NCBI GenBank assembly: GCA_020353055.1
Contig: CP070686.1
Coordinates: 1,420,738-1,477,833 of the forward strand
Source of the DNA: a candidate division WOR-3 bacterium
GTDB lineage: Bacteria > Hydrothermota > Tepidihabitantia > SM23-42
Length of the DNA stretch: 57,096 bases
Reading direction: 5' to 3'
The stretch's first letter is position 1. Each line of letters begins with the position of its first letter. Positions 47,184 through 57,096 of this stretch are shown one piece after another. The notes beneath the pieces are model-generated. The model was not told the DNA's origin. It saw nothing but the letters and a program-made list of their open reading frames with translations, and ran no database searches. The position numbers and the translations under genes are program-made.

Positions 47184-48032
47184 TCAGGCTTGCTCTGCTG
47201 CTCTCTTATTACTTCTCCCAAACATGACTTTGACGGTATCATGGGGGCATTTGTAGTAGCATTCGAGACAGCGTATGCATTCTTTTTGATTCGGACTATT
47301 ATGTACATTGATATCCATCGGACATATTTTATTGCAGATACCACATTTCGGATGTTTGCAGCCTGACTTGTCGACTTCAAAATGCACCAGGGAAAATCGA
47401 TTGAAAATCGAATAAATAGCTCCGATCGGGCAGAAAACACGGCAGAAGAATCGCTTTATGAGTATAGAAAAGATGATGACACCTACCAGAATTCCAACCT
47501 TTGTCCAGAATAACCAGCCGACGAGAGCCTTTATGTCTCCAGTTCTGTCGGCGAGCACTAAAGGAATACCTGCTTCGAGGATACCAGCTGGACATAGTTT
47601 ACAGAACCATGGTTCAAGCGTGATCCACGCTATGATACCGGCAACGCCGATCAACACGACATACTTTATGTATGTCATCCAGTGTGGTAGATTCATCTTA
47701 ATTGTCTTGAATTTGTGTAGTAAATCCTGGAGCATTCCGAACGGACAGACCCAAGCACAAGACATCCTACCGACGAGCATCCCGACGGTACCAAAGAATC
47801 CAAAGATATAGAAAGGGAAGAGGCGTAGATTGAGAAAATGCTGCAGGCCGCCCATCGGGCACGAGAATAGTGAAAGCGGACAACCCCAGCAGGTCAGAAT
47901 TGGCACGCAACCCCGTTTAAGTACTCCCTGGTAGATGAACCCGGTCCATATGGAGGGGATATAACCGAATTGGATGATCGACGCAATAATCTGTCCAATG
48001 CGGTGTGGTCTCAACCGACGATGCTTCTTCAC
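47184..48032 (-). CDS. Membrane 4Fe-4S binding protein (NapH/MauN-like)
   Basis: CWGCP...CPMG, CAWVCPFG, FCKLCPAG, FFCRVFCPIG, two C-terminal ferredoxin motifs; GTG start overlaps the upstream TGA (GTGA). Confidence 0.87.
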   Translation of the reverse strand: MKKHRRLRPHRIGQIIASIIQFGYIPSIWTGFIYQGVLKRGCVPILTCWGCPLSLFSCPMGGLQHFLNLRLFPFYIFGFFGTVGMLVGRMSCAWVCPFGMLQDLLHKFKTIKMNLPHWMTYIKYVVLIGVAGIIAWITLEPWFCKLCPAGILEAGIPLVLADRTGDIKALVGWLFWTKVGILVGVIIFSILIKRFFCRVFCPIGAIYSIFNRFSLVHFEVDKSGCKHPKCGICNKICPMDINVHNSPNQKECIRCLECYYKCPHDTVKVMFGRSNKRAAEQA

Positions 48033-48175
48033 GGTTGCAATCCCATGCAGGACAGACACATCACCGAGCCGACCGTTTCGGTCTCTACGAAATCGCCTAA
48101 TTTACCCCCATACCAAATGTTACCAATGAAGGCAAGCGTTATTACTATGATGATAATAAGCACCAGTTTTCTCAT
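48029..48175 (-). CDS. Small membrane CXXC protein (CD1871A-like), not in ORF track
   Basis: MRKLVLIIIIVITLAFIGNIWYGGKLGDFVETETVGSVMCLSCMGLQP (48 aa); AAGGGAG SD; stop overlaps the start of the 4Fe-4S gene. Confidence 0.78.
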   Translation of the reverse strand: MRKLVLIIIIVITLAFIGNIWYGGKLGDFVETETVGSVMCLSCMGLQP

Positions 48176-48317
48176 AGGACTCCCTTGAAAAGCGTAGCCT
48201 CAGACGGTAATAATACCACTGTCCCGCTTTGCAGGATCCTCGATTTTACTTGATTTGATTCATAACGAAAAATCGGGATAATCTTATTTGTTATCACCGT
48301 AATCTAAATGCGAAGCA

Positions 48318-55262: not shown

Positions 55263-56324
55263 TTATCTGACGACTACCTTACCGGTAGTGTATACACTAT
55301 TGCTCTCGAAACGATACAGATACACACCGGCGCTGACGCGTGCATCGTTAACATTCCGCAAATTCCACTCCACGGCCTCTTCGTTACCAGAAGCAACACC
55401 GTTGAGGGTACGGATTTTTCTGCCGGTGATATCAAAGAAATTAATCTGATACCGCTCGCCATTCGGCAGCGTGAACGAAAATCTCGTGCCGTTCACGCAC
55501 GGGTTGGGAGTGGGTGTAATGCTGATCCCTGCTACACTCGCATTTCCGTATTCAGCAACACCGAGTTCAGTGATATCAAGTTTCGCACCCTGCCAAACCT
55601 CGATAATCGTATCCGGTTGCAGTGCGGTATCCTGTATAAAAGCAAAGAACTGAATCTTTTCAGAGTTCCAGGTGGTGCCGAGAGTGAAATCGTAACTGAC
55701 AGTCACCGAATCGCCTGCCGGTATCGTGACTTCGTCGCCAATCCAATCCGGTATGTAGTCGCGCGCGACATTGTTATGCCACAGGTCACCATTAGGTGCC
55801 GGTTGATATATGCTGTCCTCAACTACCACGAGGATGACGTTACCGGTTAGCGGGTCGTTCGAATCGTTGCGGAATTGCGTATAGACAGTCCCAGTGCCTT
55901 CTGCAGGAATCCAGTCGCCCCACATCGTAGTGGTAAAAGAAGATGGTACGGCCATACGAGTTGCGATTTTAGTCGACCACTGAGAATATGAATAACTCCC
56001 CCGTTTGTCGCCATCGATCCAAAGCCAGGGTGTTGCATAGTACCAACCATTGTTGTACCAGTATGGGGGTGGATATGAATACCAGCGACTGTGCGCTTCA
56101 GCAGTACCCAATGGATAGCTTGTATAGACGTGCATCTCAATTGCAGCAACATGGTCTGGATTATTTATGGCTATTTGGGCCAGTGCACCACTGGCCGGGT
56201 TACACGACCCTCAGCCCTCAGAATATGCGTATTCGCAGACAACGACTCTTTCCGCTGCGAATGCAGTTGTGAGTATACCAAGCCCAAGGATCAGGCTGAG
56301 TAAGAATCTGGTATTGATGTGCAT
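55263..56324 (-). CDS. Omp28-like thioredoxin-fold protein with T9SS/FlgD-type CTD, putative selenoprotein (UGSC, Sec38)
   Basis: AAGGAGG SD; signal peptide ending AFA; ERVVVCEYAYSEG-TGA(56211-56213)-GSCNPA in frame with the ORF 55263-56135; TPWLWIDG, HNNVAR, FAFIQ. Confidence 0.85.
56178..56196 (-). promoter_or_regulatory. Putative bacterial SECIS element
   Basis: GGCCAGU-GGUGC-ACUGGCC, 14 nt after UGA. Confidence 0.75.
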
Positions 56325-56340
56325 AGCACCTCCTTATTTT

Positions 56341-57096
56341 TTATCTAACTATAACCTTACCAGTAGCATAAATATCGCTACTTTCGATACGGTAGAGATA
56401 TACACCGGCGCTGACGCGGGTGTCGTTATCATTCCGCAAATTCCACTCCACGGTTTGTTCGTTGCCAGAAGCAGTGCCGTTGAGGGTGCGGATTTTTCTG
56501 CCGGTGACATCATAGAAATCGATATTATACCGCTCTCCTGCCGGCAGCGTGAATGAAAATCTGGTGCCGTTTATACAGGGATTCGGAGTAGGTGTAATAT
56601 TCGCCGCTGCTACATTTGTATTTTCAAATTCTTCGATGCCGAGTTCGGTGATATTGAGCATCCCGCCCTGCCATATTTCTTTTGCGGAATCTGCTGGATT
56701 CATAGTAGGATTCTGGATCCATGCAACGAATTCTATCATATCCGGATTCCAAGCTGTACCGAGGGTAAAGCTGCGGCCCAGTATTACTGAGTCGCCGGCC
56801 GGTATGGAAATACTCTCGCCGGCTTGCGTTGGTAGATAGTCACGTGCTACGTGGTTGTGCCATTGGTCACCGTTTGGCGTTGGCTGATATATACTGTCCT
56901 CGGTTACCACGAAGTATGCGAGTCCGTTGATGGTTTCGGTCGTGTCGTTTCGGAATTGTGCGTATATTGTACCGGTGCTTTGTGCGGGAATCCAATCGCC
57001 CCACATAGTGATAGTCAGTGGTGCGTCTATCAACATGCGATTCTGAATCGAATCATTCCAGTAATTATAACCTGTAGTACCCTTATCTCCATCAAA
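56341..57096 (-). CDS. Omp28-like protein with T9SS/FlgD-type CTD (5' partial), paralog of 55263-56324
   Basis: Frame is open to the window edge (FDGDKGTTGYNYW...); HNHVARDY, VAWIQ; CTD closely similar to the downstream gene. Confidence 0.82.
   Translation of the reverse strand, partial: FDGDKGTTGYNYWNDSIQNRMLIDAPLTITMWGDWIPAQSTGTIYAQFRNDTTETINGLAYFVVTEDSIYQPTPNGDQWHNHVARDYLPTQAGESISIPAGDSVILGRSFTLGTAWNPDMIEFVAWIQNPTMNPADSAKEIWQGGMLNITELGIEEFENTNVAAANITPTPNPCINGTRFSFTLPAGERYNIDFYDVTGRKIRTLNGTASGNEQTVEWNLRNDNDTRVSAGVYLYRIESSDIYATGKVIVR

Follow-up and report, generated by a model that had tools for sequence, protein, structure and literature searches.

Predicted exported selenoproteins with type IX secretion tails, clustered beside a conserved five-gene module in a candidate division WOR-3 bacterium

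We carried out a comparative analysis of a cluster of minus-strand genes, each interrupted by an in-frame TGA codon, at one end of a 57,096-nucleotide stretch of DNA from a candidate division WOR-3 bacterium (assembly GCA_020353055.1, contig CP070686.1, positions 1,420,738 to 1,477,833 of the forward strand; henceforth the window). The source genome (coordinates below given as G000:C1) is a single contig of 2.69 Mb rated 96.9% complete, and the source DNA is present in sediment and soil metagenomes of about 10 studies, no RNA run being listed among those that contain it. With the TGA read through in silico, each gene forms one continuous minus-strand frame with exactly one internal TGA, at which we write selenocysteine (Sec, U): g1 (55263-56324; 353 amino acids (aa); TGA at 56211-56213, U38 in the motif UGSC), g2 (53347-55248; 633 aa; TGA at 54697-54699, U184 in SGUG), g3 (51162-53129; 655 aa; TGA at 52560-52562, Sec in SCUG) and g4 (50355-51065; 236 aa; TGA at 50940-50942, U42 in UPFC). 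An earlier note, made from the letters of the window alone, had reported these four genes; all four TGAs lie where it placed them, the two UxxC motifs and the one CU motif that it described are UGSC, UPFC and SCUG (the fourth gene having GU, in SGUG), and it overlooked a fifth gene that crosses the end of the window. This fifth selenoprotein gene, g0, is a paralogue of g1 with the motif ETUGSC, found on the minus strand at 56341-57096 within the window and at 56341-57417 in full (G000:C1:1477078-1478154), its TGA-bearing 5' part falling at window-equivalent 57097-57417, beyond the last window position (57096). Judged by eye rather than by a predictor, each of g1-g4 starts with a hydrophobic, signal-like N-terminus and none follows downstream of the TGA, in keeping with the earlier description of signal-bearing segments joined by a TGA to open reading frames (ORFs) that lack a signal. 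Two of the genes, g3 and g4, also have TGA as their own stop codon (51162-51164 and 50355-50357, respectively), meaning that this organism still terminates translation at TGA and that the internal TGAs need a local signal.

The product of g1 is a secreted Omp28/HBP35-like protein with Sec38 and a type A sorting tail of the type IX secretion system (T9SS), and g0 matches both Omp28 (38 bits) and Por_Secre_tail in Pfam. The product of g4 is a lipoprotein built of a thioredoxin-fold half, which holds Sec42, and a beta-sandwich half; g4 is also the first gene of a five-gene module to which we return below. In g2, an N-terminal beta-sandwich resembling a carbohydrate-binding module (CBM) and carrying Sec184 is followed by middle domains and then by a T9SS tail. 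Its paralogue g3 has an N-terminal domain of 45% identity, a middle domain unlike that of g2 and a T9SS-like tail.

The machinery for Sec decoding, which the earlier note had proposed to look for elsewhere in the genome, is all present. Specifically, selA, selB and selD score 550.8, 346.3 and 317.5 bits, each above its curated cut-off, and ARAGORN identifies a tRNA with anticodon TCA as tRNA-SeC, to which the Rfam tRNA-Sec model gives 75 bits (above cut-off). The genes for tRNA-Sec, selB and selA are grouped within G000:C1:448326-453649, with selD 8 kb off at 461771-462676, and the selD gene carries one in-frame TGA of its own.

We found the internal TGA to be strongly conserved across homologues, which excludes chance in-frame TGAs. 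A search of 41 related genomes with the N-terminal domain of g2 gave 74 matches. Of these, 71 have exactly one TGA, and the other three are fragments ending before residue 63, meaning that the codon is present in every match that spans the site (71/71). It occupies one alignment column in 19/19 aligned loci of the g2 family, and is set in an unchanged motif in loci whose titles name other phyla (Thermoanaerobaculales, Eisenbacteria and Cloacimonadota), further related loci being titled Candidatus Stahlbacteria, among others. A phylum-wide search of 272 genomes detected the g2 family in 108, with a TGA in all matches listed and with up to nine matches per genome (G193). Most homologues of g1 have one TGA, and g4 orthologues likewise have one. 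Looking at what replaces Sec, as the earlier note had suggested (TGA or a Cys codon, TGY, in homologues), we found the TGA column conserved and Cys in the paralogues of the UxxC proteins: where g4 and g1 have UxxC, their Cys paralogues carry CTYC, a further Omp28-like gene of the same genome reads UPYC where its Cys relatives have WCTYC, and UxxC aligns by sequence with CxxC in thioredoxin 1fo5 and in 2axo. The family also tracks the Sec machinery, in that selA (E<=1e-40) was found in 101 of the 108 genomes with the g2 family and in 21 of the 164 without it, a comparison made by matching two genome lists by hand and among related, hence non-independent, genomes.

Behind every TGA lies a hairpin of 7-8 pairs with a G-first loop that starts 17-22 nt downstream, much as the earlier note had described; this position and the G-first loop are as expected of a bacterial selenocysteine insertion sequence (SECIS), given its published distance window. 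The hairpins read CGGCGAA-GGUC-UUCGCCG in g2 (approximately 54662-54679), CAGCGGA-GGUC-UCCGCUG in g3, GGCCAGUG-GUG-CACUGGCC in g1 (approximately 56175-56193; alternatively 7 bp with the loop GGUGC), GCGUCUGC-GGA-GCAGGCGC in g4 and GCCAGUG-GUA-CACUGGC in g0. In the joint g2/g3 family (n=59, 7 pairs), 97.1% of 413 cells pair and no sequence breaks any of the six inner pairs, while 4/7 pairs change on both sides (32 cells), a number equalled in 0/500 shuffles; the loop opens with G, G and U throughout, followed by C in 58/59. Some of these paired substitutions change the encoded residues (Lys/Phe to Glu/Ser) and others are synonymous on both sides, as expected if selection acts on the RNA structure. 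The hairpin of the g1 family is likewise conserved with double changes (GCCAGUG/CACUGGC to GCCAGCG/CGCUGGC), and that of the g4 family (GCGYYYGC-GGA-GCRRRCGC) shows compensatory changes.

Could the TGAs nevertheless be true stops, with each locus holding a short secreted protein and a separate downstream gene? This is exactly the split that gene callers yield, most relatives of the g2 domain are listed at 183-199 aa, and TGA is the working stop of g3 and g4. We consider it very improbable, given that the frame is open across the TGA in all 71 spanning homologues, that a break would split a CxxC-equivalent motif within one thioredoxin fold in g1 and g4 and would precede the last strand of one beta-sandwich in g2, that the hairpin stems co-vary through synonymous as well as non-synonymous paired changes, and that paralogues have Cys in the TGA column and the families track selA. 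Sequencing or assembly errors, or decay of pseudogenes, would be conceivable in a genome that was assembled from a metagenome and has parts read as N; yet more than 100 genomes share this TGA column, the protein is strongly conserved on both sides of the TGA, and contigs from other metagenome studies, which bear on the assembly errors that the earlier note had named as a possible refutation, are identical across three of the sites, which makes this explanation practically negligible. In particular, there is no difference at the TGA in X2 at 52560, in X2 and X3 at 54697 and in X2 at 56211, and the TGA at 50940 is spanned by X10 and X7 contigs that differ elsewhere, none of the differences listed being at the site; this check used contigs only, and their cover along the stretch is incomplete. 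We thus rejected the split-gene, pseudogene and assembly-error readings on the conservation of the TGA column, covariation and independent contigs.

Another explanation is that the TGAs are indeed read through, by near-cognate insertion of Trp, Cys or Arg or under a changed code, and not as Sec. The inserted residue is not nameable from sequence alone, and seven genomes with the g2 family show no selA at E<=1e-40. One of these genomes, G016 (one contig, rated 90% complete), has all three families (those of g1, g4 and g2) with their TGA and no selA at that threshold; its selA gene may be broken, masked or missed. Further points to be set against Sec are that an Rfam scan of 47000-57096 at E<=1 matched no SECIS family, returning only a chance-level small nucleolar RNA, and that the assignment is a comparative one, made from sequences. 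A changed code, in which TGA would be sense everywhere, was rejected, as each gene has a single internal TGA at a fixed column and neighbouring genes, g3 and g4 among them, end in TGA. Against other non-Sec read-through stand a full Sec system including tRNA-Sec, a hairpin whose position and G-first loop are those of a bacterial SECIS, and the coincidence of the site with the catalytic Cys of a CxxC motif, and we regard it as barely more probable than true stops. Taking together the machinery, the covarying SECIS-like hairpins, the conserved TGA column and the Sec/Cys pairs, we hold with high confidence that the TGAs in the cluster encode selenocysteine, as the earlier note had proposed, and with slightly less confidence, though still firmly, that the genes are genuine, exported selenoproteins of the families described here.

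We then considered the family of g2 and g3, for which Pfam and NCBIfam searches matched type IX tails only, with no selenoprotein model and no Pfam CBM at E<=0.01. A structure model of the g2 domain (residues 20-216; pLDDT 93.7) is an all-beta sandwich with Sec in the loop ahead of the last strand, and its best fold matches are CBMs and other sugar-binding jelly rolls (TMq 0.40-0.57). CBM-type sandwiches (CBM4, CBM11, CBM61 and the Fbs1 sugar-binding domain) therefore share their fold class with the Sec domain of g2 and g3, but the resemblance is moderate only (TM 0.40-0.57, 10-18% identity), and no matched structure is described with Sec or C-U. We also take the NGDFE-type start and ADD-type last strand of the domain to be typical of CBM-like modules. 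Alignment positions 31-38 of the Sec-bearing sandwich read as a near-invariant Y-D-P-D-P-D-Y-E, a sequence that looks like a metal-binding (e.g., calcium) loop.

In 45/56 Sec members of the g2 family, the Sec is directly preceded by Cys (hereafter C-U-G, after the motif), and the 11 members without a preceding Cys, g2 included, share a Cys at reference position 80 that only 11 of the 45 C-U members possess. Sec thus always comes with a Cys partner, as would be expected of a selenenylsulfide couple or of a binding site with two ligands, and this suggests that the pair serves as a selenenylsulfide redox site or as a chalcogen- or metal-binding site on the cell surface. Vicinal Cys-Sec redox sites are familiar from animal thioredoxin reductase, which has a C-terminal GCUG. 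'CU' selenoproteins are also listed in a table of PMC13188914. The motif of the g2 family shares the C-U pair with these proteins and differs from them in being internal to a secreted beta-sandwich, and we detected no similarity to them in fold or in sequence.

When 1.84 billion representatives were searched exhaustively, 191 proteins matched the g2 domain. Of the 150 matches listed, most stop at the TGA, with lengths of 183-199 aa, and no called protein of 348-1108 aa matched the domain (region 1-215), which bears out the expectation of the earlier note that gene callers would fragment these genes. About 12 of the listed matches extend past the TGA column; the eleven aligned are 28-35% identical, and some of them have a Cys in the Sec column or next to it, the others different residues. 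As only such distant relatives read through without Sec, the close g2 family appears to have no substitute for it. Because the genes are cut in two in public protein sets, surface-protein families of a widespread sediment phylum are mis-annotated; and with no close relative lacking Sec and a fold not known for redox chemistry, the C-U-G family lends itself well to finding out what Sec contributes that Cys cannot.

By contrast with g2 and g3, the UxxC proteins g0, g1 and g4 belong to known territory: they are thioredoxin-fold proteins of the Omp28/HBP35/DUF1223 kind. Among them, g1 scores above the Pfam Omp28 cut-off (PF11551, 50.4 vs 34.9 bits), and its sole sequence match in the PDB is 2axo (the DUF1223 protein Atu2684), with CASC aligned on UGSC. 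The structure model of g4 (pLDDT 89.5) places Sec42 immediately ahead of the first long helix of the thioredoxin-type half, and its best match among solved structures is HBP35 of Porphyromonas gingivalis (5y1a; E 1.9e-11, TMq 0.70), followed by Atu2684 (2axo; TMq 0.60) and then by the Omp28 domain 2r2c. Atu2684, a protein of no assigned function, differs in having Cys instead of Sec and in lacking a sorting tail. HBP35, which has a C-terminal domain and is located on the cell surface, shows thioredoxin activity that requires its two Cys; it also binds hemin and supports growth under hemin scarcity (PMC2907840). It shares with g4 the combination of a thioredoxin-like redox-motif domain and a beta-sandwich, and with g0 and g1 a C-terminal sorting domain and a cell-surface layout, Sec replacing its first Cys. 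The differences are that HBP35 has CxxC rather than UxxC, that the likeness in sequence is marginal (profile E 0.85) and that g4 lacks the tail; of g0, g1 and g4, the fold comparison used the model of g4 alone. By this analogy, Sec would be the first, attacking residue of the CxxC-type site in g0, g1 and g4, and the three proteins would serve as selenol/thiol-disulfide oxidoreductases, the role that HBP35 fills with Cys.

Omp28-type selenoproteins are already catalogued, and the decoding mechanism is that of the ordinary bacterial Sec system. The NCBIfam model NF045500 (Omp28-related selenoprotein) shares with our proteins the Omp28 type and the one Sec in UxxC, and g0, g1, g4 and three more genes of the genome match most of it. 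Their scores (g1 31.7, g4 44.8, g0 38.3; paralogues 37.1 and 49.6 bits) are however far beneath the cut-off of 200, which makes g0, g1 and g4 distant branches and not members by the NCBI rule, and for g1 and g4 this also weakens the family assignment. They further differ in that most of the genes here have a type IX tail and that g4 is a lipoprotein heading a conserved module. The same family appears as 'hypothetical protein GOS_C', with UxxC, in the table of PMC13188914, where it is credited to a 2008 ocean-metagenome survey; the available part of that paper makes no mention of tails, lipoproteins or Omp28. Beyond this entry we found nothing on Omp28, type IX or WOR-3/Stahlbacteria selenoproteins in the literature searched, including the accessible parts of PMC13188914, PMC13326102 and PMC12013277. 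The cluster, which the earlier note had called hidden, is thus hidden from annotation, but its UxxC proteins have catalogued relatives. As for the C-U-G beta-sandwich family, we did not find it in that literature or among the 18,950 NCBIfam models, as matched by these proteins, and it appears to be an uncatalogued selenoprotein family; neither type IX tails on selenoproteins nor the conserved five-gene module described below were found in those models or in the literature to the extent that it was accessible, and all three may be listed elsewhere.

The claim of the earlier note that the products are exported agrees with the signal-like starts, a lipobox and T9SS tails. On the tail model TIGR04183 (cut-off 23), g1 scores 33.9, g2 46.0, g0 36.6 and g3 23.0 bits, the last exactly at the cut-off, while the Pfam tail model falls beneath its cut-off for g1 (24.7 vs 27). 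There is no type IX tail on g4, which instead has a lipobox (..IFCSEAP) that is found in 22/22 of its orthologues. The genome encodes type IX machinery, with PorU at 446.7 bits and SprA at 390 bits (both above their cut-offs), and some 45 other ORFs align with the tail portion of the PorU model; a point against is the PorV-like match, which lies beneath its cut-off (105 vs 250 bits). We would accordingly expect Sec to be inserted co-translationally in the cytoplasm, with SelB and Sec-tRNA(Sec) recruited by the hairpin after the UGA, and the precursors to cross the inner membrane by means of their signal sequences. From there, g4 would be lipidated and retained in the envelope, whereas g0-g3 would most likely fold in the periplasm before being carried out and anchored to the surface by type IX secretion. 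The SprA-type translocon gene lies within the window itself (12133-17526, plus strand; 1797 aa, 390 bits summed over TIGR04189), some 33 kb from the selenoprotein cargo genes.

Downstream of g4 and on the same strand are four genes whose products the earlier note had named as a TlpA protein with CKMC, a DUF6029-like barrel with CSGGVC, a small CXXC protein and a membrane 4Fe-4S protein, and all of them were found. The TlpA/ResA-like oxidoreductase (49849-50358, minus strand) has a signal peptide and the motif WCKMC, which is invariant in the 19 orthologues listed; it scores above the cut-offs of AhpC-TSA (80.1 bits) and Redoxin (65.8 bits), and beneath those of the NCBIfam ResA and TlpA models. 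The DUF6029 protein (48318-49901, minus strand; PF19494, 80.3 vs 27 bits) ends in ..CSGGVC..F and is a probable outer-membrane beta-barrel; a likeness of Wzi-barrel homologues to DUF6029 in HHpred has been described (PMC9603273), the one mention of DUF6029 found in the literature searched. Next come a membrane protein of 48 aa (48029-48175, minus strand), with one membrane helix and CLSC, and a NapH/MauN-like membrane protein (47184-48059, minus strand), whose annotated start it overlaps. The small protein is present in 19/20 loci and has a conserved C-terminus, GSVMCLSCMG, in which C40, C43 and neighbouring residues are invariant. The NapH-like protein has CxxCP/CxxxCP motifs and a C-terminal ferredoxin part with 2x[4Fe-4S], and all motif cysteines are invariant (n=20 sequences); its description as a membrane 4Fe-4S protein holds by its Fer4_5 match (50 vs 22 bits) and is qualified by a score far beneath the NapH family cut-off (TIGR02163, 51.2 vs 213 bits). 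A complex prediction for the NapH-like and 48-aa proteins (score 0.26, mark 0.32) speaks neither for nor against binding.

To place the module in context, we compared 20 related loci, picked by their match to g4 and spanning three families of the order, and found the order g4, TlpA-like, DUF6029, 48-aa CxxC and NapH-like gene kept in 19 of them. A C-U-G gene stands directly beside g4 in 11/20 loci. An enolase gene and a 186-aa ORF of no known family (45229-45789 and 45803-47083, both on the minus strand) follow the module in many loci of the same taxonomic family, a link that is probably only positional.

As in TlpA/ResA pathways with CcdA or DsbD and in those with NapH/NosR-type proteins, a periplasmic TlpA-like WCxxC protein here lies beside membrane redox proteins. 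Unlike in the former, neither CcdA nor DsbD is encoded among the module genes, the 48-aa CxxC and NapH-like proteins being found in that place, and the NapH model scores only 51 vs 213 bits. The TlpA-like protein would be the obvious periplasmic reductant for g4, and the NapH-like and 48-aa proteins may bring electrons across the inner membrane as DsbD or CcdA normally would. Such an electron relay, for which we have gene order and family resemblance, is plausible. That the module supplies g4 with reducing power is the likeliest reading of it, though we hold this tentatively, at somewhat short of even, and regard an onward link to the surface proteins as less probable than that. The envelope-spanning relay of the earlier note thus stays a proposal based on gene order, kept in 19/20 loci, and on family resemblance; the two C-U-G genes and the two Omp28-like tail-bearing genes are not always linked to the module.

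The main competing explanation accepts that the selenoproteins are real and denies that they have a relay in common: the surface proteins would act independently (scavenging nutrients or metals, or protecting the cell from oxidants or reactive sulfur), and the module would serve g4 or envelope maintenance. In favour of this, HBP35 provides a precedent through its role in hemin binding (PMC2907840), more selenoprotein genes with tails occur at scattered sites in the genome, and the fold of the g2 domain is of a sugar-binding and not of an oxidoreductase type. Moreover, in 8/20 loci the C-U-G and tail-bearing Omp28-like genes are apart from the TlpA module, an observation that weakens a single shared pathway: these genes need not be fed by the module, which is tied to g4 and not to the whole cluster. 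On the other hand, a C-U-G gene directly beside g4 in 11/20 loci argues for a connection, a surface selenol needs a reductant for its reuse and none other is evident nearby, and substrate or hemin binding by the surface proteins would be no more than an analogy with HBP35. We judge independence to be a serious contender, if not quite an even one. Returning to the relay, its furthest-reaching form would be a selenium-based cell surface, in which most selenoproteins of the organism are type IX-secreted or lipid-anchored, include a lectin-like Cys-Sec family, and are kept reduced by an as yet undescribed route, independent of DsbD, through the NapH-like and 48-aa proteins, TlpA and g4 at the DUF6029 barrel; we consider this whole picture unlikely, if worth stating. 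If true, it would amount to selenol chemistry outside the cell that is powered from the cytoplasmic membrane, with polysulfide, disulfides or metals of the sulfidic sediment as possible targets. In any case, the five-gene module is a candidate route by which reducing power could reach the outer envelope without DsbD or CcdA.

Finally, a genome-wide scan for in-frame TGAs, combined with the family searches, gave at least 11 exported selenoprotein genes and 3 cytoplasmic ones (two HdrA-like genes and selD), i.e., approximately 14 candidates. The scan was crude, missing selD and a paralogue at C1:2181xxx and including two doubtful sites, and these counts are lower bounds. Among the exported candidates are three Omp28-like UxxC genes with type IX-like tails at G000:C1:922913-925315 (minus strand), 2149199-2150266 (plus strand) and 2181377-2183539 (plus strand), the last of which is the UPYC gene mentioned above. 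The tails of the first two pass TIGR04183 and that of the third, whose end is partly masked (N), was read by eye; some of these genes have extra domains (one of 784 aa, one of approximately 660 aa). Two paralogous secreted FG-GAP-like proteins of 413 aa (G000:C1:780585-781949, plus strand, and C1:466521-467771, minus strand) have one in-frame TGA in YGUCQG, a G-first hairpin and TIGR04183 scores of 34.5 and 35.0 bits; no selenoprotein model matched them, and they may represent another uncatalogued family. A candidate C-U selenoprotein of 440 aa (G000:C1:1497800-1499152, minus strand) has its TGA in DSCUTSG, a hairpin and a tail of 19 bits, beneath the cut-off. On the cytoplasmic side, two large HdrA-like iron-sulfur flavoproteins (G000:C1:1075508-1079905 and 1083073-1085556, both on the plus strand) have the TGA in DC..UILGPK..MDVGRH with a GGUC-loop hairpin, and presumably resemble cytoplasmic selenoproteins of a known kind (HdrA). 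Characterised bacterial selenoproteins are mostly cytoplasmic enzymes, and compared with that set the balance towards exported selenoproteins in this genome is unusual.

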